29,520 nucleotides of DNA from Candidatus Zixiibacteriota bacterium (GCA_041742355.1 JBGSIV010000227.1:1-29520), one strand, 5' to 3'; shown: positions 913 to 28,590, counted from the first letter of the stretch. Numbers and translations are program-made. The notes: generated by a model not told the origin, from the sequence alone.

Positions 913-1491
913 ATGCCGTCGCGAAAAGAACTGATGGAACGCCTGCAACGCTATCTTGAAGGGCAGATGGAAGCCGACGAGAAGGCGTTGTTTGAAAAGC
1001 AACTCGAGGGGGACCCCGAGCTGCGCCGGATGCTCCAGCTGCAGCGTGCCCTCGCCCGGGAAACCGCCGAAGGGGGCGACCTGCGGCAGGCCGCGAAAGG
1101 TCTCATCGACCGCTTCATCAAGGACCTTCACCGCAGCAAGGAAACCGGCCATCGCGCTTTTCTGACGTTCGATTCCGGCCTGCTCCCGTTACCCGTGGGT
1201 ATCCGCCCCGCATCGGTCGACAGTCGGCGGCTCAAGTATGCCGCCGACAACATCCAGCTTGAAGTATCCGTCTACCCGGCCTCACCAGGGAGTTTCGAGG
1301 TGATCGGCCAGGTCGAGGGATACCCCTCCGGAGTAACCCTTAACATCACATTGTCGCGCGGCCGAACCATCCTCCGGGAAACCGCAAATCCGTTTCAGGT
1401 GTTCCATTTCGCCCGCGTCCCTCAAGGGGGCTACGCCCTGACTGTTGCCGACCCCGATGGTCGGCAGGTCGAATTCTCCCTTGAGTTGTAG
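913..1491 (+). CDS. Putative cytoplasmic anti-sigma factor
   Basis: Directly follows the ECF gene; N-terminal anti-sigma-like helices (LQRYLEGQMEADEKALFEKQL), a LTFDSGLLPLPVGIR motif and a beta-rich C-terminal domain; no TM helix; GAGGA RBS at 901-905. Confidence 0.65.
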   Translation: MPSRKELMERLQRYLEGQMEADEKALFEKQLEGDPELRRMLQLQRALARETAEGGDLRQAAKGLIDRFIKDLHRSKETGHRAFLTFDSGLLPLPVGIRPASVDSRRLKYAADNIQLEVSVYPASPGSFEVIGQVEGYPSGVTLNITLSRGRTILRETANPFQVFHFARVPQGGYALTVADPDGRQVEFSLEL

Positions 1492-1752
1492 CGCAGCCGC
1501 AACTCGCCGATCTCGTCTCCGAACGCCTGCCGGATCGCCCGGTGCTCCGCCTGAGGACTGTCCCAGTCGATACTAGTGCTGCAGGGTGCGTCCGGCTCCC
1601 CGCAACCGACAATCAACAGTACCTCGTGGCGACTCACTGTGCGTGCCGTAACTGGGACAGAATGCTGCTTTACCCCGTGTCTTCCCGCGCTTCTTACTCA
1701 CCATGCCGCACGTCGTGATCGCTCTCACCTTCGCCCGTAAAGGGGGTGCGTC

Positions 1753-3177
1753 GTGACAACCCGCATCTGCGTCCTCCGAATCCTGATCACCCTGTTGATC
1801 AGCGGCTGCTCCGTCGCCGACGTTTGTGCCGACAGTAACGATCTGCCCGGCCAGGCGGTCGTACAACTTGACCGGCACAGCTCGGCCGCCCGGGTCTTCC
1901 GTGGCGCCGGAGTCACGGTCCTCGACAGCGTCCCGGGTCTTGGCCTCTACCTGGTGTCTTTCCCCGCAGATATTCCGATCGAGCGGAAGCGGGCTGCGCT
2001 CGCCCGCAGGCCCGGCATCCTGCGCACGCATCCCAACCGTTCGCTCAAGCTGGTGCGGCCGTTTCAAGTCGAGGTCGGATGGCCGGATGACGACGCCCCG
2101 GTGTTTGTCAGCGGTGAACAACCCGCTTCCTACTACGGCCAGCCCTCGGTTCTTTCGATCGGCCTGGACTCGGCCCACACCCTCTCTCAGGGCGATGGCG
2201 TCACTATTGCGATCATCGACAACGGCGTTGACCGCACCCACCCGCTTCTGGACAGCCTGTCGGCGCCGCTTCTGAACGACCTCGTTGACAGTGACGACGA
2301 CCCGAGCGAAGTTCCGGGAGCGCTCTACGGCCATGGCACTTTCACCGCCGGCCTGATCCGGCTGGCTGCTCCCGCCGCCGATCTTATGGTCATCCGCGCT
2401 TTCGACAGCAGCGGCGTCAGCACGATCTTCACCATCAGCCAGGCTATCAGCTGGGCGGTGGATAACGGCGCGGACGTCATCAACATGAGCTTCGGCACGT
2501 CCGTTTCCAACGGCCTGCTCGAACTTGCCTGCAGCCGCGCCATACAGGCGGGGGTTGTCCTTGTGGCTGCGGTCGGCAATGCGGGCACGACTCAGCCGGT
2601 GTATCCGGCCGCCTACAACGGCGTCATTGGGGTCGGCGCCATCGACACCCTGGACTTCATCGCACCGTTCTCCAACGGCAACAGCGCCGATGTTTGCGCT
2701 CCCGGTATCAGCCTCTACAGCGCTCTGCCCAATCCCTGGCTCTGGGGGACATGGAGCGGCACCTCGTTCTCCGCGGCGCTTGTTTCCGCTACCGCGGGTC
2801 TGGTCCTCGCGCTCAGTCCGGAAATGGCCCCGCTCGATGTGGAATCCCACCTTCGGTCTACGGCTGATACCAATCTCGCCTGGGGCGCCGTTATCCCGCC
2901 CGACCTGTACTACGGCTACGGTCGGATCAATGCCTGGACGGCGGTCCTAGCTTTCCAGCCCATGCCGGCGGCCAAGTCCGGCGTTTTCACCGTGAGCGAC
3001 GTGCGGCTTATTGCCGAAGCATGCGCGACCGGTTACGTACGCGGCAACTCCTCGGCCTGGCGGCTGGACCTGAACCACGATGGCGTCATCAATCGCGCCG
3101 ACCTCGAACTTGCGGTTCGACTCCTCTTCGGCCCGCCGGACGACCCGGATCCTTTCCGATCGCGGCCGCAACGCTGA
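1753..3177 (+). CDS. Secreted S8 (subtilisin-like) serine peptidase with C-terminal dockerin-like Ca-binding repeat
   Basis: Signal-peptide-like N-terminus; catalytic triad motifs IAIIDNG, GHGTFTAG, SGTSFSA; oxyanion AVGN; C-terminal DLNHDGVINRADL. Confidence 0.92.
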   Translation: MTTRICVLRILITLLISGCSVADVCADSNDLPGQAVVQLDRHSSAARVFRGAGVTVLDSVPGLGLYLVSFPADIPIERKRAALARRPGILRTHPNRSLKLVRPFQVEVGWPDDDAPVFVSGEQPASYYGQPSVLSIGLDSAHTLSQGDGVTIAIIDNGVDRTHPLLDSLSAPLLNDLVDSDDDPSEVPGALYGHGTFTAGLIRLAAPAADLMVIRAFDSSGVSTIFTISQAISWAVDNGADVINMSFGTSVSNGLLELACSRAIQAGVVLVAAVGNAGTTQPVYPAAYNGVIGVGAIDTLDFIAPFSNGNSADVCAPGISLYSALPNPWLWGTWSGTSFSAALVSATAGLVLALSPEMAPLDVESHLRSTADTNLAWGAVIPPDLYYGYGRINAWTAVLAFQPMPAAKSGVFTVSDVRLIAEACATGYVRGNSSAWRLDLNHDGVINRADLELAVRLLFGPPDDPDPFRSRPQR

Positions 3178-3630: not shown

Positions 3631-3767
3631 ATGCCGGAAAGGACCCGAATACCGGCTGATTTTCTTCCCCGGCCCAGAACTTGTCGGCCTTCTCGTTGTT
3701 ACAGGGGGATACTATTTCTCGGCGAAGCGTGATGCTTCGCTTCAACCAACAGCCAAAGAGCAGCCGC

Positions 3768-4889
3768 ATGAACACACCATATCTTGTCAGCACCCTGGGC
3801 CTTCTCACCGCAGCCGTTCTCCTGGTGGTCGGCCCGGCCGTCGGGCAGGGGGCGCCGCCCACGCTCGTTGTTACCGAACCTGTGAAATCCATGGAATTCC
3901 ACGACCAGATCACCCTGACCGGCCGGACAGAAGCCTGGGTCACCAGCCGGATTGTCGCCGAAATTGCCGGCCGCGTCGAGCTTGTCAACGCCGGTGAGGG
4001 AAGGGCCGTCCGCAAAGACGACCCCCTCATGACGATTGACTGTCTCCAGATGGAGTACGCCGTCAAAGCCAAAGCGGCCGAGGCCGAGCAGGCCCGGCTG
4101 AAAGCCATGCTCGCCTCCGACGCCCTCGAACGCGCCGAAGATCTCTTCGCGCGCCATCTCATTCCCGAAACCACAGCCGACTCGGCCCGTACCTGGGCGA
4201 CCATAACCGAACAGAGCTACTTCCAGATCGAGGCCGATCACCAGCGCCTCGCGGTCGATTATGACCACTGTACCATCCGCGCCCCCTTCGCCGGCTACAC
4301 CGGCCGCAAGCTCATCGATGTCGGCGAGTGGGTGAATCCCGGCACCCCGGTTTTCGAGCTGGTCGATATCGCCCACATTCGCGTCCGCGTCGACCTGCCC
4401 GAACGTCTCTTCGGCCAGCTCTCGATCAGCAGCGCTGTGACCGTTCAATCCGGTGACCGTGGTAACGCGGACCTTTCCGGCAAGGTCATCGGCATCTCGC
4501 CGAATGCGTCCGAAGAAACCCACACGTTCCCGGTTATCATCGATGTTCCCAATCCGGATGCCCGGCTCGCCGGCGGAATGCTCGTGCGGGCCACCCTCTC
4601 GCTGGACAACAAGTTTGCCGGCCTCGCCGTTTCCAAGGACGCTCTCGTCCGGCAGGGTGCGCAGACCATGGTGTATACCGTCGTGGACGGCAAGGCCGTT
4701 CCCGTCCCGGTTGTGACCACCTCGACGAACGGCGATATGGTCGCTGTCCAGAGTGAGATGTTGCGCGAAGGGACCGCGGTCGTTGTCCGCGGCAATGAAC
4801 GCATCTACCCCGGCGCCGCCGTCACTGTCTCAGGCGCCCCAACCGCGCCCGAACAGGTTGCTCCATCCGCTTCCGCGGCCGGGCACTAA
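3768..4889 (+). CDS. RND efflux periplasmic adaptor (membrane fusion protein)
   Basis: Signal/anchor after ATG 3768 (preferred start); lipoyl-like halves AEIAGRV...EG and IRAPFAG...DVGEWV flanking a coiled hairpin; adjacent to the RND permease. Confidence 0.92.
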   Translation: MNTPYLVSTLGLLTAAVLLVVGPAVGQGAPPTLVVTEPVKSMEFHDQITLTGRTEAWVTSRIVAEIAGRVELVNAGEGRAVRKDDPLMTIDCLQMEYAVKAKAAEAEQARLKAMLASDALERAEDLFARHLIPETTADSARTWATITEQSYFQIEADHQRLAVDYDHCTIRAPFAGYTGRKLIDVGEWVNPGTPVFELVDIAHIRVRVDLPERLFGQLSISSAVTVQSGDRGNADLSGKVIGISPNASEETHTFPVIIDVPNPDARLAGGMLVRATLSLDNKFAGLAVSKDALVRQGAQTMVYTVVDGKAVPVPVVTTSTNGDMVAVQSEMLREGTAVVVRGNERIYPGAAVTVSGAPTAPEQVAPSASAAGH

Positions 4890-4922
4890 CGCCCCAACCC
4901 CCTTCACAAGAGAGATGCGACC

Positions 4923-7900
4923 GTGAGCCTCATAACGACTTCCATCCGCTTTCCCATCACCGTCATCGTCGGCGTCCTCGTGGCCGTCGTGGGCGGCGTC
5001 ATTGCCCTCACGCGCGTACCCGTGCAGCTCACGCCCGAGGTCGAACGCCCCGTTGTGACCGTGAGCACTACCTGGGTCGGTGCTTCTCCCGGGGAAATCG
5101 AGAAAGAGATTATCGAGAAGCAGGAGGAGTACCTCAAGTCGATCGAGGGCCTGCTGGAAATGACCTCTCAATCAGAAGACAGTCGCGCCACCATCACCCT
5201 TGAGTTCCCCGCCGGCACCGATCTGACCGGCGCCGTTGTCCGTGTCACCAACAAGCTCAACGAGGTCCCCTCGTACCCGACGACGGCCGATCGCCCGATT
5301 GTCACCACCTCCGGCCAGCTTGAAGGGGCTATCGCCTGGTTTACGGTCAAGGCCGACTCTGCGGGCGTCTACGTTCCCCACAACCAGGAAGTCATCGAGG
5401 ACCTGGTCAAGCCGCGCCTCGAGCGGGTGGAGGGCGTTGCATCGATCAACATCTTTGGCGGTCTGGAGCGTGAGCTCCATGTCGTCTTTGACCCCGACCT
5501 GCTCGCCTCGTCAGGCATCACCATCGACCAGCTTGCCGGCGCGCTTCGTAACGACAACCGGGACATCTCGGGCGGCGACTTTTCCGAAGGCAAGCGCCGC
5601 TACGTCGTGCGCACGATTTCCCGCTATGAATCCCCCGAGCAGGTTGCCCGCACAGTCGTCACCGTTCGCGGCGGCGTGCCGATCCGGGTCGGCGATGTTG
5701 CCGAGGTGGAGTTGACCTACCAGAAGCCTTTCGCTATGGTTCGCCATCTGGGGGCTCCTTCCATCGCCTTCAACGCCCAGCGCCGTGTCGGCGCCAACGT
5801 CATCGACGTAATGGACGGTCTGATGGCCCAGACCGATATTATCAACAAGGAGATCATGGCCCCGCGCGGCATGCACATCGAAAATGTCTACCGTGAGACG
5901 GTGTATATCGACTCGGCCATTGATCTCGTGCTCTCGAACATCTACCTCGGCGGTTTCCTCACGATCCTGACTCTGTTCTTGTTCCTGCGTTCGCCCTCGG
6001 CCGTCCTCGTGATATCGCTGGCCATTCCCATCTCGATCGTATCGAGCTTCCTCGCGGTGGCGCTCACCGGGCGTTCGCTCAACGTGATTTCGCTCGCCGG
6101 CATGGCCTTCGCGGTCGGCATGGTGGTCGACAGCGCCATAGTTGTTCTGGAAAATATCTATCGCCACATGCAGATGGGGAAGAGCCGGTGGGAAGCCGCT
6201 TTGGACGGCACCAGGGAAGTCTGGGGCGCCCTGCTCGCCTCGACCGTCACCACGGTCGCCGTCTTCCTGCCCATCATGTTTGTCAAAGAACAGGCCGGGC
6301 AACTCTTCAAAGACATCGCAGTTGCCATCTCGACCACCATCATTCTCTCGCTGATTGTTTCGATCACGGTGATTCCCACGCTGGCGTCGCGCATGCTGAA
6401 GGTCTCGACAAAACTGGCCGGGCAAGATGACTCCAAAGGCTGGCTCGCCCGGTTCGCCCGGAGAGTAGCCGATATCGTCGACTGGTCCAACAGCACCGGT
6501 CGGCGACGGTTCGGTACGATCCTCGGCATCCTCGTCGTCGCCGTCGGCCTGACTGTCCTGCTCCTTCCGCCGGCCGAGTATCTGCCCAACGGCAACCAGA
6601 ACCTCATATTCGGGTTCATTCTCCCGCCCCCCGGTTACAACCTCGATGAAATGGTCGGAGCGGGAGAGATGATCGAGAATCAGTTGCGCCCACTCTGGGA
6701 GACCGATCCCGCTTTGGCCGACACCTTACCAGGCGGCGGCATCGACAACTTCTTCTATGTCGCTTTGCCCAATCAGGCTTTTCTGGGAATGGCCGCCCGC
6801 CATCCGGAACGCGCCGCTGAACTCGTCCCGATCGCCAACCAGAGCCTGTTCTCCATTCCCGGGGCGATCGGTTTCGCTTCCCAGGCGTCGCTTTTTGAAT
6901 CAGGCTTCGCCGGCACTCGCTCGGTGCGTATCGATATCTCCGGTCCCGAATTGCCCGAGATTCTCCAGATCGCCATCCAGGTTTTCGGACAGGTTCCCCA
7001 GGTGCTCCCCGGTGCAAACTCACGGCCCATTCCCGGCCTCGATCTTGGCAACCCGGAGGTTCGGGTGTATCCCGACCGTGTCCGTGCCGCCGATGTCGGC
7101 CTCGACGCTTCCTCTATCGGTCGATCGGTCAACGCGCTGGTCGACGGCGCCGTTGTCAGCGAGTACTTCCACAACGGCCGCGAGGTCGACCTGCTCATCA
7201 AGGGTCGGGACGATTGGAGCCGCCACACGCAAGACATTGCGATGCTCCCCATCGCCACTCCCGGCGGCCGCATTATCACCATCGGCGATGTCGCCGACAT
7301 CCGCCAGGAACAGGGGCCCGTCCAGATCAATCACATAGAACGCCTGCGCACCGTTTCGATTGAGACCATCCTTCCCGACAACCTTCCTCTCGAGGAGGCG
7401 GTTGCCCGTCTCGACCGGGAGATCGTCGAACCGATGCGTGCCCAGGGGGTGCTCGGCGGCCTCTACGACATCAACCTCTCCGGTACCGCGGACGACCTGA
7501 CGAAACTCCGAACGGAGCTGATGACCGACTTCCACATCGCGATCATCCTGACCTACCTGCTGCTGGTCGCTCTGTTTCAGTCTTTCACCTACCCGCTGGT
7601 GGTCATGCTCACTGTCCCGCTGGCCACGTTTGGCGGTGTCGTCGGCCTGGATCTGCTGCAGGTATTCGATCCGTCGCAGCAGCTTGATGTCCTTACCATG
7701 CTTGGTTTCGTCATCCTCGTCGGTACGGTGGTGAACAACTCGATTCTCATCGTCTACCAAGCCCTCAACCTCATGCGCGAGGGTTGGGAGCCGCGCAGCG
7801 CAGTGAAGGAATCGGTCCGCGTCCGTGTGCGGCCAATCTTCATGACCACCGGCACCACGGTGCTCGGGATGCTGCCGCTGGTAGTTATGCCCGGCGCCGG

Positions 7901-8093
7901 TTCCGAGCTCTACCGCGGTATCGGCGCGGTTATTATCGGCGGCCTGTCGGTTTCGACCATCACCACGCTGGTGCTGACGCCGCTCGTCTTCTCCTACGCA
8001 ATTGAATTGGTGCTGAAGGTCCGCGGCCTGTTCGGCCTCGAACAGCGTGCGGCCGGTGTCGCGCCCTCCCTGCAGGAGGAAAGCCGGGGCTGA
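4923..8093 (+). CDS. RND efflux permease (AcrB/AcrD/AcrF family)
   Basis: 1056 aa with two large periplasmic loops; GMVVDSAIVVLENI and RVRPIFMTT motifs. Confidence 0.95.
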   Translation: MSLITTSIRFPITVIVGVLVAVVGGVIALTRVPVQLTPEVERPVVTVSTTWVGASPGEIEKEIIEKQEEYLKSIEGLLEMTSQSEDSRATITLEFPAGTDLTGAVVRVTNKLNEVPSYPTTADRPIVTTSGQLEGAIAWFTVKADSAGVYVPHNQEVIEDLVKPRLERVEGVASINIFGGLERELHVVFDPDLLASSGITIDQLAGALRNDNRDISGGDFSEGKRRYVVRTISRYESPEQVARTVVTVRGGVPIRVGDVAEVELTYQKPFAMVRHLGAPSIAFNAQRRVGANVIDVMDGLMAQTDIINKEIMAPRGMHIENVYRETVYIDSAIDLVLSNIYLGGFLTILTLFLFLRSPSAVLVISLAIPISIVSSFLAVALTGRSLNVISLAGMAFAVGMVVDSAIVVLENIYRHMQMGKSRWEAALDGTREVWGALLASTVTTVAVFLPIMFVKEQAGQLFKDIAVAISTTIILSLIVSITVIPTLASRMLKVSTKLAGQDDSKGWLARFARRVADIVDWSNSTGRRRFGTILGILVVAVGLTVLLLPPAEYLPNGNQNLIFGFILPPPGYNLDEMVGAGEMIENQLRPLWETDPALADTLPGGGIDNFFYVALPNQAFLGMAARHPERAAELVPIANQSLFSIPGAIGFASQASLFESGFAGTRSVRIDISGPELPEILQIAIQVFGQVPQVLPGANSRPIPGLDLGNPEVRVYPDRVRAADVGLDASSIGRSVNALVDGAVVSEYFHNGREVDLLIKGRDDWSRHTQDIAMLPIATPGGRIITIGDVADIRQEQGPVQINHIERLRTVSIETILPDNLPLEEAVARLDREIVEPMRAQGVLGGLYDINLSGTADDLTKLRTELMTDFHIAIILTYLLLVALFQSFTYPLVVMLTVPLATFGGVVGLDLLQVFDPSQQLDVLTMLGFVILVGTVVNNSILIVYQALNLMREGWEPRSAVKESVRVRVRPIFMTTGTTVLGMLPLVVMPGAGSELYRGIGAVIIGGLSVSTITTLVLTPLVFSYAIELVLKVRGLFGLEQRAAGVAPSLQEESRG

Positions 8094-10232: not shown

Positions 10233-11333
10233 CTACTTCTGCGTCGACGGCTGCGGTTCCTGAAACCGCTCCAGCAATTCCCGAATGAAGTCCGGTTCAA
10301 TCGCCTGCTCGCCGCGCTTCTGTTCGATTTGCCACATGCAGTACGGGTTGTTGGCCCGCTCTCCGGTGGCCGAGACCGACGTGGTCATGCAGCCGCCCCG
10401 GCACAGTGGGAGGTATCGGCAGGAGTGGCACGCGCCCGTCGCCGTCCCCTTCGTGAATTTGCGGTTGTACAGGAATTTGGTCGGGTCATTCCAGATTTCC
10501 GTGAACGACCGTTCCCGGATGTTCCCTTCCACAAACTCCGGCTGCAGCGAGAGGCAGCCTTTGACGTCGCCGTTCGAGCAGATGCCGGCGATGCGGAGGC
10601 CGGCGCGACAGCCGAGGAACACCCCGTAGTCCCACAGCTCCGTTCCCTTGCATCCGTAGTAGCCGATATTCTCGCCGACGTCGATGCCCATGCGGTCGTC
10701 TTTCTTGAACTCGATGAGCTTGTCGACGAGCGTCTCATACTCCTCGAGGTTCATCACCATCTCCCGTTCCATGCGGCCGGTGACGGTCGTCATCTGCACC
10801 CGCCACTGGGGACACCCGACCGAGATCAGGTCGGCGTGGATGTTATCCATGTCCTTCAGGTTGATCTTCGAAATCTGGCTGACCGCCTCGTAGCGAATGC
10901 CGCGGGCCGTCATGAGGCTCATGGCATGCAGGCACTTGTCGTAGCTCGTGTTGCGCTGCCGGATGTAGTTGTGGATGTCCTTGGATCCGTCAAAGGAGAT
11001 GCCGATGTTGCGGAATCCCAGCCGCGCGAACTGATCCACGATTTTCTCGTCGATCAGCATCGCATTCGAGATGAGATACAGCATGACCCCGTTCGCTCCG
11101 ATCCGCTCCGCCAGCACGGGCCAGTCCTTGCGCAGCAGCGGCTCGCCGCCCGAGAGGGTAATCCCCTCCGAACCCAGACCGGTCAATTCGTCGATCAGCG
11201 CCAGTGCTTCGTCGGTCGTCAACTCGTCGCTTCGCGGGACACCGGCCGAGGTGCCGCAGTGAAGGCAACGCATGTTGCAGGCATAGGTGATTTCCCAGAC
11301 GACCTGCTGGGGGAAGAATTTGTACTCCGTCAT
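10233..11333 (-). CDS. Radical SAM/SPASM enzyme, PlpX/splicease-like
   Basis: VVWEITYACNMRCLHCG (CxxxCxxC), SGGEP, QWRVQMT..GR, GENIGYYG, GCRAG...GDVKGCLSL, CHSCRYLPLCRGGC...NNPYC. These match motifs I recall from PlpX-family spliceases. AAGGAG RBS lies within the upstream gene's end. Confidence 0.85.
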   Translation of the reverse strand: MTEYKFFPQQVVWEITYACNMRCLHCGTSAGVPRSDELTTDEALALIDELTGLGSEGITLSGGEPLLRKDWPVLAERIGANGVMLYLISNAMLIDEKIVDQFARLGFRNIGISFDGSKDIHNYIRQRNTSYDKCLHAMSLMTARGIRYEAVSQISKINLKDMDNIHADLISVGCPQWRVQMTTVTGRMEREMVMNLEEYETLVDKLIEFKKDDRMGIDVGENIGYYGCKGTELWDYGVFLGCRAGLRIAGICSNGDVKGCLSLQPEFVEGNIRERSFTEIWNDPTKFLYNRKFTKGTATGACHSCRYLPLCRGGCMTTSVSATGERANNPYCMWQIEQKRGEQAIEPDFIRELLERFQEPQPSTQK

Positions 11334-11337
11334 GGCG

Positions 11338-12705
11338 CTACTCCTTATTGGCGATTTGCGATTGATCTTGTTGCGAACGGCGCTGCATCTCCTGCTGGCG
11401 GGAACGCGCGATTATTTCCAGCATGGGCTGGAGGTTGTGCTTCCAGGTTTCGCACACCTCGACATCGGACAATCCCCGTTCGAGGCGGCGCGAGGGGCAA
11501 GCACCCATGCAGATGGGCAGCAGGTCGCACTCCGTGCACCGGGCATTGTCGAAGGGAGAGAAGTCAAACAGCGACCGGAAATTCGGGTGCTGGTAGTTCA
11601 TTTCCTCGGTGATTTGCCCGCACGCTTTCTCGGTCAGCCCGGCGTGGTTCCAGCAGCGGTACAAGTATCCCTCCGGGTCGATGAGGTGGGAATTGATCAT
11701 CGACGCCATGCAGAACGAGGAGAGGGGGGACGGGAGCTTGTCGATGCTGAACCCCTGCTCCAGCAGGAGCCGGTGGTAATCGACCTCGATATGCGAGAAG
11801 TCCGTCGAATCGTAACACGATTCGGAAATGTTCGCGCACACTTTCGACGCCGCCTCAACCATGCCGAAGTGCACGCCGACACGTTCCCGCAAACCGGCGG
11901 CCGTCAACTCGGCCAGCAGCTCGGTGATCGTGTCGGGGGTAAAGGACTTGTCGACATTCACCCGGATGCCGACCGTCATTTTGGTCGATGCGTACTTGAT
12001 ATTTTCGATAATCTTGTAGAAGCTCCCGCGTTTGCTCTTCAGCGGTCGCTTGACGTCGTGAATCCGGGCCGGGCCGTCCAGGGTCACCTGCACGAACGTC
12101 ACCCGCCAGTCCACCAGGCGATCAACCGTCTCCGGCGTCAGCAGGTAGCCGTTGCTCACCATCGAGGCGCGGTACGTGTACTGGTAGCGTTCGGCCATTT
12201 CCATGAACGCCTTGGTCAGCTCCTCGATGACATCGAGGGCCAGCAGGGGCTCGCCGCCGTACCAGTCGACCGAGAGATTCTGCAGGTGCTTCGCCTGCTT
12301 TTCCACGAAGCCGACCAGCGCCGTTCTGACCTCGGGCGACATTTTCCGCTTCGTTTTCTCCTCATAGCAGTACACGCAGGCCATGTTGCAGGCCATCGTC
12401 GGCGCGATGACCAGTCCCAGCCCCGTCCGGTCGTAGCGGTTCAGGTGGTGCTGAAACCGGAGGTCATAGAACTCCGAGAAACCATCCTTCCGCACGAATC
12501 CCCCAAACTCCAGCTGCTTGAGAAGTTCCGCTTCCGGCTCGGTCAACTCCGCCGCCCCGGGCCCGCGCAGCTTCGCGACCAGGTTTTCGTAAACCCCGTA
12601 GTTCTCGTCGGTCATCAGGGCAACCGCTCCGGAAAACGCGTTGTAGGCGATGTGGTAGCCGTCCTGCCATCGCTGGAAATGGTTATAGCGAGACACGGTA
12701 GACAT
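11338..12705 (-). CDS. Radical SAM/SPASM peptide maturase with N-terminal RRE-like domain (Cys-rich peptide/thioether-forming type)
   Basis: Likely start ATG 12705 (MSTVSRYNHF...IAYNAFSGAV); CNMACVYC, WYGGEPLL, QVTLDG; SPASM cysteines CMAS...YRCW...CTECDLLPICMGACP...C. Confidence 0.9.
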   Translation of the reverse strand: MSTVSRYNHFQRWQDGYHIAYNAFSGAVALMTDENYGVYENLVAKLRGPGAAELTEPEAELLKQLEFGGFVRKDGFSEFYDLRFQHHLNRYDRTGLGLVIAPTMACNMACVYCYEEKTKRKMSPEVRTALVGFVEKQAKHLQNLSVDWYGGEPLLALDVIEELTKAFMEMAERYQYTYRASMVSNGYLLTPETVDRLVDWRVTFVQVTLDGPARIHDVKRPLKSKRGSFYKIIENIKYASTKMTVGIRVNVDKSFTPDTITELLAELTAAGLRERVGVHFGMVEAASKVCANISESCYDSTDFSHIEVDYHRLLLEQGFSIDKLPSPLSSFCMASMINSHLIDPEGYLYRCWNHAGLTEKACGQITEEMNYQHPNFRSLFDFSPFDNARCTECDLLPICMGACPSRRLERGLSDVEVCETWKHNLQPMLEIIARSRQQEMQRRSQQDQSQIANKE

Positions 12706-12841
12706 GCTTTGATTCCGCCATTTGCAGTTCTTGACGCGGGGCAGTGCCCGGTTCTGCCCCACGCTGGTTCGCATCGTATTTCGGATGCGCCTATCTGTTC
12801 GAGGGACCACATCGACGGCCGGCCATTCATCGGACCGTCGA

Positions 12842-12874
12842 TCTGCAGGCCGGTATTACTGTCCGGCCTGCAGA
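12842..12874 (-). other. 12-bp stem-loop downstream of precursor B
   Basis: TCTGCAGGCCGG (12842-12853) / CCGGCCTGCAGA (12863-12874), perfect; no U tract. Confidence 0.8.
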
Positions 12875-12890
12875 ACAATCAGCATTCCGA

Positions 12891-12986
12891 TCACATGTAA
12901 ATCGGATCAATCCCGTACAAAGCCTTGGGACGCAGACAGCTGCACGGCCGATTCGCCACGGCCTGCGGGTCGACTAAATAGATCAT
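12891..12986 (-). CDS. RiPP precursor peptide B, 31 aa: MIYLVDPQAVANRPCSCLRPKALYGIDPIYM
   Basis: Translated by hand (below ORF-track cutoff); RBS AGGGAGGTGA at 13000-12991; paralogous to 13135-13221. Confidence 0.9.
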   Translation of the reverse strand: MIYLVDPQAVANRPCSCLRPKALYGIDPIYM

Positions 12987-13095
12987 GTAGTCACCTCCCT
13001 TCGATCGTTATGCTGTTGTGGTTCCCGGCCAACCTCGTCGTGAGCCTGGCTTTGGAGCCGCAATTTTCCACTTTCCCTGCGTTTGAAATCAGATC

Positions 13096-13124
13096 GCACC
13101 GGAGGCAGCTATCGCCTCCGGTGC
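13096..13124 (-). other. 11-bp stem-loop downstream of precursor A
   Basis: GCACCGGAGGC (13096-13106) / GCCTCCGGTGC (13114-13124), perfect; no clear U tract. Confidence 0.8.
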
Positions 13125-13134
13125 CATGGCGGTA

Positions 13135-13221
13135 TCAGATGTCGATACCGTAGAGAGCCTTCGGGACTTTGCAGGTGCACGGGCGATTCGCCACAACCTG
13201 CGGGTCGATTAAATAGATCAT
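13135..13221 (-). CDS. RiPP precursor peptide A, 28 aa: MIYLIDPQVVANRPCTCKVPKALYGIDI
   Basis: Translated by hand; RBS GGAGGT at 13232-13227, 5 nt from ATG; 22/27 aa identical to precursor B with multiple synonymous changes. Confidence 0.9.
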   Translation of the reverse strand: MIYLIDPQVVANRPCTCKVPKALYGIDI

Positions 13222-13578
13222 TCCGAACCTCCGTGAATGATCTTGCTCCAGGAGCGGCCGCAACACCGCCGGGGAATTCAGAAAGGAGACTCTTCCGGCG
13301 AACCGCGAGCACCCCTATGCAGCAAGTGGTGAGTGTAACGGATGCCCGACCGAACCAGGTCGCCCCGGATGCATCAGCACCCCGGACAACTCATCCAGGC
13401 GAGCGTGGGCTTCTCATTCTTCTATGGCATGCAATTTGGATAGCGGCAGCGGCAGAAGGACTGTGCCGAAACACCATGCCCCCAATTCACTGCCTACTCG
13501 AATTTCACTGGTATCCCATCAGACACTATCAACGAGACCACGAATGTCATGTCAACGTCATTTTGGTCCTACTTACAA

Positions 13579-13607
13579 AAAGTAAGCGTCATGGACAAAA
13601 GTGTCAA
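13579..13607 (-). promoter_or_regulatory. Putative sigma70 promoter for the RiPP cluster
   Basis: Minus strand TTGACA (13607-13602), 17 nt spacer, TACTTT (13584-13579) in an AT-rich patch. Confidence 0.45.
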
Positions 13608-13776
13608 GGACTAACTGGTCAAGTATCGTCAGAAATTGGATAGAACGTGGTCTCTATGCTGGTTCTTCGCCAAATCGCTTGAATCCCCCTCTGTAATCAC
13701 CTACATTTTGGTACGCGAATCACTACGTTCGGATGCGAATTTTCGTCACCGCTTACGTAACCCGGAGGGTCATTCG

Positions 13777-16988: not shown

Positions 16989-18854
<1,866 letters not shown>

Positions 18855-18876
18855 AACCACTACACAATCCTTCCTG

Positions 18877-19650
18877 TTAGTCTCGGTGCGCCACAAGGGC
18901 AAACAGCATCGGGTACTTCGGCGCTCCTTCCGGCGGGTACCAGTACCCCTCGCGCTCGATCCAATCGTCGCCGTAGCGGTAGCACAGGCCGTCGGACTCC
19001 TCCAGCCGTTCCACTCTCAGACCGGCTGCGATCACCGCCGTGACAATTTCTCCCAGCGAGTGCTGCCACTCGACCGACTCTTCACTGGGTACGTAATCTT
19101 TGTCCGCGTAGTCCGGGTCGTTGTACCGCTTCGCCTCCCGCTCGAAATATGACACACCTTGTAGGTAGACGGTGGCGATCGGGTGAATGTCGACCATCAG
19201 AAATGTCCCGCCCGGTTTCAGGTGGTGCGCGACAACTCTTGCCCACCGGTCAAGACCGCCGACCCAGTGGTGCGTCCCATACGATTGGAATACGATATCG
19301 AATGTCCGGTCGATCTTTCCGGTTAGTTCAACCACATCGGACCGCACGAATTCTGCCTTCAGGCCCGTCTGCCGTGTCAGTTCATGGGCCAACTCAATTG
19401 ATCGCCCGGAAATATCCACGCCCGTCACCTCTGCTCCCAGCCGGGCCCAAGACAACGTATCCAGTCCGAACTGGCAGAACAGGTGCAGCAGCGACTTGCC
19501 GCGCACGTCGCCCAGGAGGCGCCGCTCGATTGGTTTGAGCGAATTCCACCCCGCCAGAAACTCCCGCACGCGGTAGTCCGGATGGTTGAAATGCACGTCG
19601 GCGATCTCGTCCCAGAGCCGACGGTTTTGCTCGTGGTTGGGATCGGGCAC
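18877..19650 (-). CDS. Class I SAM-dependent methyltransferase
   Basis: Likely start GTG 19650 overlapping the lptG stop (TAGTG); NRRLWDE, LLHLFCQFGLDTLSWARLGAEVTGVDIS, LKPGG. Confidence 0.88.
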   Translation of the reverse strand: MPDPNHEQNRRLWDEIADVHFNHPDYRVREFLAGWNSLKPIERRLLGDVRGKSLLHLFCQFGLDTLSWARLGAEVTGVDISGRSIELAHELTRQTGLKAEFVRSDVVELTGKIDRTFDIVFQSYGTHHWVGGLDRWARVVAHHLKPGGTFLMVDIHPIATVYLQGVSYFEREAKRYNDPDYADKDYVPSEESVEWQHSLGEIVTAVIAAGLRVERLEESDGLCYRYGDDWIEREGYWYPPEGAPKYPMLFALVAHRD

Positions 19651-26971: not shown

Positions 26972-27056
26972 GGAGAGGTGGCCGAGCGGCTTAAGGCGCA
27001 CGCCTGGAACGCGTGTATAGGGAAACCTATCCAGGGTTCAAATCCCTGCCTCTCCG
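26972..27056 (+). tRNA. tRNA-Ser(GGA)
   Basis: Acceptor GGAGAGG/CCTCTCC, D-loop GCCGAGCGGCTTAAGGC, anticodon arm CACGC-CTGGAAC-GCGTG, long variable arm ATAGG-GAAA-CCTAT, T-loop GGTTCAAATCC; CCA not encoded. Confidence 0.96.
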
Positions 27057-27252: not shown

Positions 27253-28590
27253 ATGAATCGCACCACCGGGCTTCTTTTCATCCTGACCCTGCTGATGGTT
27301 ACCGCCCTCGCGGTCACTGTCGGCGCCACCGTCCCCGGCACCATGAACTACCAGGGCCGCCTGACCAACGCCTCGGGCACGCCGCTGGTCGGCACCTACT
27401 CCGTCCAGTTCACCATCTATGACGCCTCCTCCGGTGGCATGGTGAAGTGGCAGGAAACACAATCCATCACCACTGGCGCCGGCGGCCTATTCTCCGTGCA
27501 ACTGGGCTCGGTAACACCGATCAGCAGCAACGTATTCAGCACAGCCTCCCGCTGGCTTGGCGTCAGAGTCGGCGCCGATCCGGAGTTGTCCCCCCGCCAG
27601 CCCCTCGCCAGCGTCCCGTACGCCCAGCGCGTCGCTACTGTCGACAGCGCCGCGGGTGGCCATATCACCGGCGACCTTTATGTCCGAGGCACCCATATTG
27701 GCATCGGGTCGAATATTGACCCTGCGTCCAATAATCAGGGGATGCTGACTGTCAATAGCATCCTCCCCGGTGTCTCATTCGTGGGTGCCGGAATTGTGGT
27801 CGGGAATGACGCGGGCCCTGCCTATCTCGCCGTGGGCAAGGACTCTGAGAACTACATGTGGGCCGGGTACAGTGACGCTCATGGGAAGTTAGGGGTCAAT
27901 ACCGGCTTCTGGAAGAAGCCGCTGTACCTGCAAACCACTGGTGGCCCAATAGCTGTTGGCTCCTGGGACTACGTTCCGGAAGCGCGCCTGCATCTGTTCG
28001 GTTCCGACAACATCGCACATGGCAAGAACGCCTGTGTTGCTATTACCAACTACGCCACCAACGGCGGCTCCTGGTACCTCCGCGCCGGCGCCACCGGCAC
28101 CAGTACCGGACCCGGCGCTTTCTCCATCGCCAACTCCTCGTCCTATCGCCTCGTCATCGATTCCACCGGTAACGTCGGCATCGGCACAACAAACCCAGTG
28201 TACCCCCTCCAATTGGGCAACGGCGCCTACTGCAGCGTCGGCGGCACCTGGACCAACGCCTCCGACCGCGACCTGAAGACTGAATTCACCCCGGTCGATG
28301 GCCAGGCGCTCCTCGACCAGCTCTCCGCCCTCCCCATTACCGAGTGGCGCTATAAAGCCGACTCCACCGACATCCGTCACATCGGCCCCACCGCGCAGGA
28401 TTTCGCCGCGGCCTTCGGCCTGGGCGGCGACACCACCGCCATCTCCACCGTCGACCCCTCCGGCGTCGCCCTCGCCGCGATCAAAGAGTTGCACCGCCAG
28501 AACCAGGAACTCCAAAGCCAGAACGCGAACCTCAAAAGGCAACTCGAGGATCTCGCCGTAAGAGTCGAGAAGCTGGCGGCCGGCAAGTAG
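27253..28590 (+). CDS. Secreted fibre-like protein with C-terminal peptidase S74 (intramolecular chaperone) domain
   Basis: Signal peptide; TMNYQGRLT...LSPRQPLASVPYA N-domain; GNVGIGTTNP repeat; SDRDLK...WRYK...HIGPTAQDF...AIKEL followed by a coiled coil; AGGAG RBS. Confidence 0.88.
   Translation: MNRTTGLLFILTLLMVTALAVTVGATVPGTMNYQGRLTNASGTPLVGTYSVQFTIYDASSGGMVKWQETQSITTGAGGLFSVQLGSVTPISSNVFSTASRWLGVRVGADPELSPRQPLASVPYAQRVATVDSAAGGHITGDLYVRGTHIGIGSNIDPASNNQGMLTVNSILPGVSFVGAGIVVGNDAGPAYLAVGKDSENYMWAGYSDAHGKLGVNTGFWKKPLYLQTTGGPIAVGSWDYVPEARLHLFGSDNIAHGKNACVAITNYATNGGSWYLRAGATGTSTGPGAFSIANSSSYRLVIDSTGNVGIGTTNPVYPLQLGNGAYCSVGGTWTNASDRDLKTEFTPVDGQALLDQLSALPITEWRYKADSTDIRHIGPTAQDFAAAFGLGGDTTAISTVDPSGVALAAIKELHRQNQELQSQNANLKRQLEDLAVRVEKLAAGK

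Follow-up and report, generated by a model that had tools for sequence, protein, structure and literature searches.

We describe here two very short tandem genes, A and B, on the minus strand of a 29,520-nucleotide stretch of DNA from a Candidatus Zixiibacteriota bacterium (GCA_041742355.1 JBGSIV010000227.1:1-29520; the whole stretch is called the window in what follows). The two genes almost certainly encode genuine precursors of peptides that are ribosomally synthesized and modified after translation (RiPPs), and they head an operon that continues with genes for two radical S-adenosylmethionine (SAM) enzymes, rSAM1 and rSAM2, and an ABC exporter, in the order A, B, rSAM1, rSAM2, exporter. 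The reading of the operon that we favor as a whole, with a probability of roughly 0.6, is a hybrid one in which rSAM1, guided by a RiPP recognition element (RRE), would cross-link the Cys residues of the peptides, rSAM2 would splice out tyramine at their Leu-Tyr-Gly (LYG) sequence, and the ABC transporter would export the product. The two genes and their Shine-Dalgarno sequences are located as follows (lengths in amino acids, aa).

13135..13221, minus strand: precursor gene A, 28 aa, MIYLIDPQVVANRPCTCKVPKALYGIDI
13227..13232, minus strand: Shine-Dalgarno sequence GGAGGT of A, 5 nt before the ATG
12891..12986, minus strand: precursor gene B, 31 aa, MIYLVDPQAVANRPCSCLRPKALYGIDPIYM
12993..12998, minus strand: Shine-Dalgarno sequence GGAGGT of B, 6 nt before the ATG

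An initial annotation of this DNA had proposed A and B as paralogous open reading frames (ORFs) of 28 and 31 codons, and both are present on the minus strand, each behind the strong GGAGGT ribosome-binding site claimed for it. Peptide A begins with MIYLIDP (residues 1-7), the leader or recognition motif, continues with a CxC core formed by Cys15 and Cys17, and closes with LYG (residues 23-25) and a 3-residue tail. Peptide B has the same architecture, with LYG again at residues 23-25 and a tail of 6 residues. A codon-by-codon comparison of the first 27 codons reveals 15 that are identical, seven that differ synonymously (R13, C17, P20, L23, G25, I26, D27) and five that are replaced (I5V, V9A, T16S, K18L and V19R, from A to B). 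Our recount agrees with the earlier figure of 22 of the 27 leading residues common to both peptides, and the same list of synonymous codons and the same replacements (I/V, V/A, T/S and the KV/LR pair) are recovered. Over these codons the method of Nei and Gojobori gives proportions of synonymous and nonsynonymous differences (pS and pN) of 0.54 and 0.13, respectively, and a dN/dS ratio of 0.15. The nucleotide identity is 78% in the 81 shared coding bases and, in an ungapped comparison, falls to 20% over 60 bases on the upstream side and to 23% over the same distance downstream. The similarity therefore does end at the ORFs, as had been stated, and the equal conservation through the flanks expected of a simple DNA duplication was not found. 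A search of the 4.37-Mb genome with peptide B returned A at an E value of 1.1e-11 and, besides B itself, no other match, which argues that the similarity of A and B is not due to chance.

The same arrangement recurs in related genomes. A scan for relatives of rSAM1, restricted to one genome per species, yielded 101 stretches, from which 79 loci were kept. Fifty-two of these (L003-L054) form a close set, at 47-61% identity or fragments of such, and are mostly labeled Zixibacteria, Ignavibacteria or FCB group; the remaining 27, at 23-32% identity and mostly from Firmicutes, gave peptide matches at chance level only and are outside the counts that follow. A regular expression for the peptide found 86 ORFs in 47 of the 52 close loci, all of them upstream of rSAM1 and on the same strand, and a further ORF that it had missed was found by eye in L053, bringing the total to 48 of the 52. 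The four other loci have no readable upstream DNA, three (L006, L044, L054) beginning inside the enzymes and one (L007) being masked with Ns. A Shine-Dalgarno-like site precedes 85 of the 86 ORFs found by the regular expression, the exception lying at a contig end, and the number of peptide copies per locus ranges from one to five. Together with the dN/dS ratio, this family of peptides upstream of a maturase bears out the proposal that A and B are translated and under purifying selection. Stops or frameshifts in homologous ORFs, the other sign of a non-coding origin that was looked for, were not found, save at one locus (L041), where the peptide is shortened to 20 aa (3811-3873) and rSAM1 (4001-5359) has an internal stop; this locus is either decaying or mis-assembled.

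Downstream, the operon is conserved as well. rSAM2 lies directly 3' of rSAM1 in all 42 loci that are long enough, and an ABC exporter follows in 32 of 34, directly in 16, as in the window, and after an extra gene of ~1.4 kb in the other 16 (L003 6390-7919, L010 6486-7927 and 14 more). In the two loci where this extra gene was scanned it encodes a B12-binding radical SAM protein resembling a methyltransferase; the window cluster does not contain it. The nearest cluster found (L102) is in a genome of the same genus, with rSAM1 69% and rSAM2 77% identical, and its peptide reads ...GNRPPCTRCRIKPLYGIDPVPI. More broadly, 20 of 61 related genomes, counting the present one, contain matches to a profile of the peptides, with up to 11 per genome, and rSAM2 orthologues occur in 85 of the 285 genomes of the phylum. 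The public labels of close relatives conflict, between 'uncultured Ignavibacteriales' (L036/L049) and 'candidate division Zixibacteria' (P0123 and others), and the name of the phylum is therefore uncertain.

An alignment of 78 unique peptides gives the consensus MIYLIDPxxxxxxxCxxxCxxxCxxxxPLYGVPxxxx, over precursors of 28-48 aa. M1, P7 and the Tyr are invariant, and conservation is at least 90% at L4, at the Gly, at the Pro preceding L-Y-G and in two of the Cys columns. Between these ends the core is hypervariable, with one to five Cys residues, of which neighboring pairs are spaced CxxxC in 114 of 157 cases; the tail after Y-G has 3-13 residues. The earlier claim that variation is concentrated in the core near the cysteines thus holds across the family. 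The Tyr (78/78) is followed by Gly in 76 peptides and by Ser in two, and the residue X that precedes YG is mostly L (56 peptides), otherwise M (12), C (9) or I (1). Counted from the Tyr, the site further shows I at -4 (33 of 78), K at -3 (37), P at -2 (75), V or I at +2 (72) and P at +3 (48). The window peptides stand at the short, minimal end of the family. Their two Cys residues form CxC, a spacing seen in four of the 157 pairs, and their site reads K-A-L-Y-G-I-D, with the Ala in place of Pro at -2 that only two of the 78 peptides have. We also considered a longer version of A, starting at GTG 13266 and 43 aa in length, and rejected it because all 78 aligned family members begin at the M of MIYLIDP.

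Two features of the site vary with the extra B12-binding gene. Gly at -5 (C-G-I-K-P) is present in 13 of 31 peptides from loci that have the gene versus 1 of 23 from loci that do not, and Cys as X before YG is found only with the gene (6 vs 0), in both cases among kin that are not independent of one another.

The peptide family is unnamed in Pfam and NCBIfam. The two window peptides have no Pfam match at E values up to 0.01, and when they and eight relatives were compared with NCBIfam at E values up to 10, only chance rows (CsgC, MoaA, GGGWT) were returned. In a collection of 5.8 billion proteins, 193 match the family profile at E values up to 0.001; among the 120 matches listed, none carries a Pfam domain or is named beyond 'hypothetical protein'. 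The family was likewise not found in the literature on radical SAM RiPPs and spliceases in connection with Zixibacteria or Ignavibacteria, nor was a YLIDP-type string found in one supplement of PMC10288494; the family may stand in a published list of 939 predicted splicease systems.

The remaining genes of the operon are as follows.

11338..12705, minus strand: rSAM1, radical SAM/SPASM maturase carrying an RRE-like domain at the N terminus, 455 aa from ATG 12705
10233..11333, minus strand: rSAM2, radical SAM/SPASM enzyme without an RRE, candidate tyramine splicease, 366 aa, 4 nt after the rSAM1 stop codon
8248..10020, minus strand: ABC exporter, 590 aa, with transmembrane and ATPase domains and no C39 peptidase domain

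Called mechanically, the rSAM1 ORF runs from GTG 12810 to 11338; translation most likely begins at ATG 12705, given that 39 orthologues have their initial M-x-K-x-S-R-Y-N-H-F at that position. The protein matches Radical_SAM in Pfam. Its NCBIfam scores are 330 bits for the Clo7bot maturase TIGR04334 (cut-off 600), 304 for TIGR04463 (525) and 207 for CefB, NF038107 (600), followed by 134 for PapB (340) and 82 for the SCIFF maturase (425). The best relative of solved structure is CteB (5wgg, E 3.8e-14), in an alignment that runs from CteB residue 15, in the N-terminal domain. A CxxxCxxC motif (C106, C110, C113) and nine further cysteines, those of the SPASM domain included, are invariant in 35 rSAM1 orthologues. 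We modeled the complex of rSAM1 (35-row alignment) with peptide B (76-row alignment) and obtained a score of 0.68, a mark attained by 116 of 157 solved complexes and by two of 215 mismatched pairs; three controls reached 0.01 at most. At least 58% of contacts are common to the runs, and the predicted local distance difference test (pLDDT) of the peptide is 46-59. The model places residues 1-7 of the peptide along rSAM1 residues 26-31 and close to residues 61-69 and 432-440, and Cys15, Cys17 and residues 18-21 contact core and SPASM residues of the enzyme. The RRE-like domain of rSAM1 is thus predicted to bind MIYLIDP by strand addition, the mode typical of RiPP recognition elements.

In contrast to rSAM1, rSAM2 lacks an extension at the N terminus, and the radical SAM domain begins at residue 14; the iron-sulfur cysteines of both enzymes are complete and both genes are intact. 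Its joint-best NCBIfam matches are the uncharacterized TIGR03913, at 208.9 bits (cut-off 592), and TIGR04103, the nif11-class maturase 3 model, at 206.5 bits (E 5e-61, positions 6-346 of 412, cut-off 725), which we take to be the model of PlpX-related spliceases. Lower matches are AhbD, MftC (147.8, cut-off 265), NirJ2, StsB (106.7), WgkB and PqqE (83.5, cut-off 381), and the best relatives of solved structure are SkfB and PqqE. No member of TIGR04103 over the cut-off was found in the same genome or in 14 control genomes, and the listed rSAM2 orthologues are named only 'radical SAM protein'.

The case for splicing comes from the site itself. Published spliceases remove tyramine at an XYG motif, and LYG and MYG both occur as natural sites, with RasA having LYG alongside two Cys residues; inhibition of serine and cysteine proteases requires the resulting ketoamide (PMC11414181, PMC11626197, PMC9811515, PMC10849128, PMC10533398). 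Table 1 of PMC10533398 gives splice tags derived from PlpA as GPIRPLYGLPI. The likeness of this tag to the family site I-K-P-L-Y-G-V/I-P is the strongest argument for splicing. In PMC11414181, spliceases are described as phylogenetically diverse, and binary splicease systems outside cyanobacteria as having no Y protein; no Y protein candidate was noticed between the genes of the present operon, where no dedicated search for one was made.

Several observations on related proteins touch on this division of labor. A 938-aa protein (P0307) joins an rSAM2-like N-terminal half to a Clo7bot-like, rSAM1-type C-terminal half, which fits two enzymes acting on one substrate, and a second fusion (P0241, 731 aa) has a C-terminal half that scores 318 bits on TIGR04103. 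Such fusions would fit an rSAM1 recognition domain that serves both enzymes. A second sub-cluster in L029 (779-2666) encodes two peptides in which the leader (MDYL[VI]DP) is retained and P-L-Y-G is missing; they adjoin an rSAM1 paralogue without an rSAM2 of its own, which fits a pairing of the leader with rSAM1 and of YG with rSAM2. Four stand-alone rSAM2 paralogues (L108-L111, 31-39% identity) were also inspected for YG precursors. One of them, at 36% identity (L110, G225:C149; 6-1010, minus strand), is preceded by a 95-aa ORF (1274-1561, minus strand) ending in ...IVRYGVPPE. This pairs an XYG site and the familiar V-P-P tail with a long leader, which is suggestive only; near the other three nothing clear was seen.

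Environmental sequences add variants of the locus and a weak indication of its transcription, to which three further features are relevant.

13096..13124, minus strand: GC-rich hairpin after A, 12 bp, -26.7 kcal/mol, z -4.5
about 12842..12874, minus strand: strong hairpin after B, 12-bp stem, -34.8 kcal/mol, z -6.5
~13385..13403, minus strand: upstream limit of the RNA-library contigs, possible 5' end of a transcript (X3 record 10, X5 record 11, X7 record 14)

Both frames stay open in the environmental variants. Among the 31 listed of 39 differences, 21 fall in the 148-nt spacer, six in B (96 nt) and four in A (87 nt). The ten listed changes in the 183 nt of the ORFs comprise five that are synonymous; the others replace residues in B (M31I, A9T) and in A (I28V, and V19R through two bases). 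There are thus fewer listed changes per base in the ORFs than in the spacer and half of those in the ORFs are synonymous, in keeping with the purifying selection claimed for the peptides.

Contigs from three RNA libraries of two studies (X3 and X7 from one, X5 from the other) are confined to ~12855-13403, namely X3 at 12855-13032 and 13169-13403, X5 at 12918-13389 and X7 at 13162-13385; being contigs and not reads, they hold no strand information and DNA carry-over is possible. A DNA run (X2) also spans 12700-12826 and goes on to 13464 and beyond, while 12700-12835 and 13414-13700 are without RNA-contig cover, a part that by itself proves nothing. The contig end at ~12855 falls near the hairpin after B. 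Since the ends of the RNA contigs coincide while the DNA run continues on both sides, there is a weak hint of a short transcript that starts ~165-180 nt before A and ends at the hairpin after B. The hairpin after A, which is flagged as terminator-like with a weak U tail, is likely an attenuator or a stabilizer of the mRNA. Family-wide, the 60 nt after the stop codon fold with a mean of -21.1 kcal/mol versus -13.9 in coding controls, and 53% versus 10% reach -20 kcal/mol or lower, in a comparison where kin are not independent and the base composition of the two sets differs. No sigma-70-like site was found by a promoter scan of 12700-13700, and Rfam gives a tRNA at 26972-27056 as the sole match in the window, with none in the 5' region of the operon.

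Contigs of a related locus in two of the RNA libraries (X3 record 7, X7 record 12) share with the window only 13310-13335, 13201-13223 and 12991-13016. The first of these patches is upstream of A and untranslated, and it may be a conserved 5' element.

Taken together, the hybrid reading would run as follows. A and B would be carried on a short, abundant mRNA that is bounded or attenuated by the hairpin after each gene. MIYL(I/V)DP would be the whole leader, and its pairing as a β strand with the RRE-like domain of rSAM1, as in the predicted complex, would put Cys15 and Cys17 near the active site. By its homology to CteB, rSAM1 would form Cys-based cross-links, most likely thioethers. rSAM2, having no recognition domain of its own, would work on the invariant Tyr-Gly of the C-terminal motif, and motif and homology point to it most likely being a tyramine splicease that would convert Leu-Tyr-Gly into an α-keto-β-leucine-Gly ketoamide. 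The ABC transporter would then export a small, constrained ketoamide peptide, plausibly an inhibitor of serine or cysteine proteases by analogy with published spliceotides.

A number of points weigh against this reading, among them the nature of the RNA evidence described above. For no named maturase family does rSAM1 reach the curated cut-off, so that 'thioether' is only the nearest analogy. The score of the modeled complex may in part reflect the solved structure of CteB with its peptide, and the pLDDT of the peptide is low. rSAM2 is far under the cut-off of TIGR04103 and scores equally on an uncharacterized model, and when 109 of the 150 nearest representatives of its 50% clusters were scanned, none passed any curated cut-off. 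The operon contains no leader-removing protease. Finally, the window peptides may be processed differently or poorly, given the rare Ala at -2 and the unusual CxC spacing.

The main alternative, which we consider unlikely but worth serious attention, is that A and B are true RiPP precursors and rSAM2 is not a splicease. It would carry out some other radical modification at or near Tyr-Gly, and the product would be multiply cross-linked without a ketoamide; a sactionine-type thioether from Cys to Gly or Cys to Tyr, a carbon-carbon or ether cross-link at Tyr, and epimerization are all possibilities. The matches of rSAM2 to MftC, to the StsB sactisynthase model, to WgkB and to PqqE fit such chemistry, as do SkfB and PqqE as its best solved relatives and the failure of every scanned neighbor to attain a curated cut-off. 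Moreover, PMC10288494 shows that Cys-to-Gly sactisynthases exist among MftC-like enzymes and that similarity over the full length is misleading. However, the invariant Y-G in its P-L/M-Y-G-V/I-P context mirrors the published splice tags, and a Cys-directed, CteB-like enzyme is already supplied by rSAM1. The number of Cys residues varies from one to five while YG is constant, which argues for a reaction at YG that is independent of Cys.

It is highly improbable that the peptides are precursors of a small redox cofactor in the manner of PqqA or MftA, with the invariant Tyr as the carbon source and the remainder of the peptide discarded. Very short precursors with an invariant Tyr and the similarity of rSAM2 to MftC and PqqE suggest it, yet rSAM2 is under both cut-offs, and against it also speak the hypervariable core, the presence of one to five gene copies at each locus with as many as 11 profile matches in a genome, the dedicated exporter and the patchy distribution over the phylum. 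Nor do the peptides have a C-terminal Val-Tyr or an E-x-x-x-Y motif; their Tyr is followed by Gly and 3-13 further residues, and there is no conserved Glu. That A and B are duplicated DNA or a non-coding repeat, untranslated ORFs or decaying relics can practically be set aside: the Ala at -2 and minimal core of both copies and the broken locus L041 speak for it, but against it stand the dN/dS ratio with seven purely synonymous codon differences, the loss of similarity at the ORF borders, the strong Shine-Dalgarno sequences, the intact maturase genes with all their iron-sulfur cysteines, the open frames of the environmental variants and the RNA-library contigs over the region.

The hybrid reading can be set beside several known systems. 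As in the spliceotide systems (PlpA/PlpX-PlpY of Pleurocapsa; RhaA/RhaX, RasA/RasX and RcsA/RcsX of Rheinheimera), a radical SAM/SPASM enzyme adjoins precursors in which an XYG motif is present. This motif is LYG in both A and B, as it is at the natural splice sites of RasA and PlpA; the family consensus resembles the splice tags in its context P-L-Y-G-(L/V/I)-P, RasA also has two Cys in its core, and a Y protein is missing from the binary systems. In contrast, the precursors here have 28-48 residues and a 7-residue N-terminal motif rather than long Nif11-type or helical leaders, a second radical SAM enzyme, which bears an RRE, accompanies them in every case, the TIGR04103 score of rSAM2 is far under the cut-off, and the window peptides have Ala before the Leu; splicing here is a prediction from sequence.

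With the ranthipeptides and sactipeptides (SCIFF/CteB, PapA/PapB) the operon shares an enzyme built of RRE, radical SAM and SPASM domains whose best solved relative is CteB, Cys-rich cores, and a leader predicted to pair with the RRE strand. It differs from the SCIFF and PapB systems in that rSAM1 is under both cut-offs, and from the class at large in its CxxxC repeats (CxC in the window) and in having a YG motif and a second enzyme besides. The families that rSAM1 matches best in NCBIfam, Clo7bot (TIGR04334), TIGR04463 and the 'Cys-every-fifth' CefB (NF038107), also have tandem short Cys-rich precursors; rSAM1 is below their cut-offs, however, and the peptides match no NCBIfam or Pfam model. 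To our knowledge, these families are themselves uncharacterized. Thuricin CD (TrnC/TrnD) likewise has two precursor genes and two radical SAM/SPASM enzymes in one operon (PMC12093266). Here, by contrast, one to five precursors per locus occur with the same two enzymes, which belong to different subfamilies, and there is no sign of a two-component product. Mycofactocin (MftA/MftC) and pyrroloquinoline quinone (PqqA/PqqE) resemble the system in their very short precursors with a conserved Tyr and in the moderate similarity of rSAM2 to MftC and PqqE; they differ from it in the points given above, that is, the variable core, multi-copy genes, exporter, non-terminal Tyr, missing Glu partner and scores under the cut-offs.

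A bolder proposal can be made tentatively, at odds somewhat short of even. The operon may represent a natural hybrid class in which the 7-residue strand MIYLIDP is the entire leader and rSAM1 both cross-links Cys and presents the peptide to rSAM2 for tyramine splicing. The products would then be the smallest known gene-encoded, thioether-constrained α-ketoamide protease inhibitors, diversified by tandem copies, expressed in soils and sediments, and encoded by ~30% of genomes in one poorly studied phylum. If this is true, gene callers miss the 28- and 31-aa genes that define the product of a widespread natural-product family, and Cys cross-linking and backbone splicing of tyramine are joined in one minimal scaffold with a seven-residue tag. 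Such a scaffold would be attractive for engineering ketoamide protease inhibitors and for learning how a splicease without a recognition domain locates its substrate, and a testable function would be assigned to a cluster that 85 of 285 genomes carry in a phylum dominated by uncultured members. If only the generic reading is true, that of RiPP precursors with undefined chemistry, the gain in annotation is solid but ordinary.

Elsewhere in the window, an S8 subtilase (1753-3177, plus strand) is followed by an RND adaptor (3681-4889, plus strand) and permease (4923-8093, plus strand), which converge on the end of the ABC exporter gene. For the peptide, the subtilase and the RND pair may act as leader protease, as target or as efflux partner; they may also be unrelated to it. 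On the other side of the operon, 16989-18902 (minus strand) encodes a lyase of the class II fumarase/aspartase type with an N-terminal cyclic-nucleotide-binding domain, an unusual fusion. Finally, just after the tRNA at 26972-27056 (plus strand) lies a gene (27253-28590, plus strand) for a protein with a Peptidase_S74 (endosialidase chaperone) domain, which is found in phage tail fibres, and this region may be the edge of a prophage or island.

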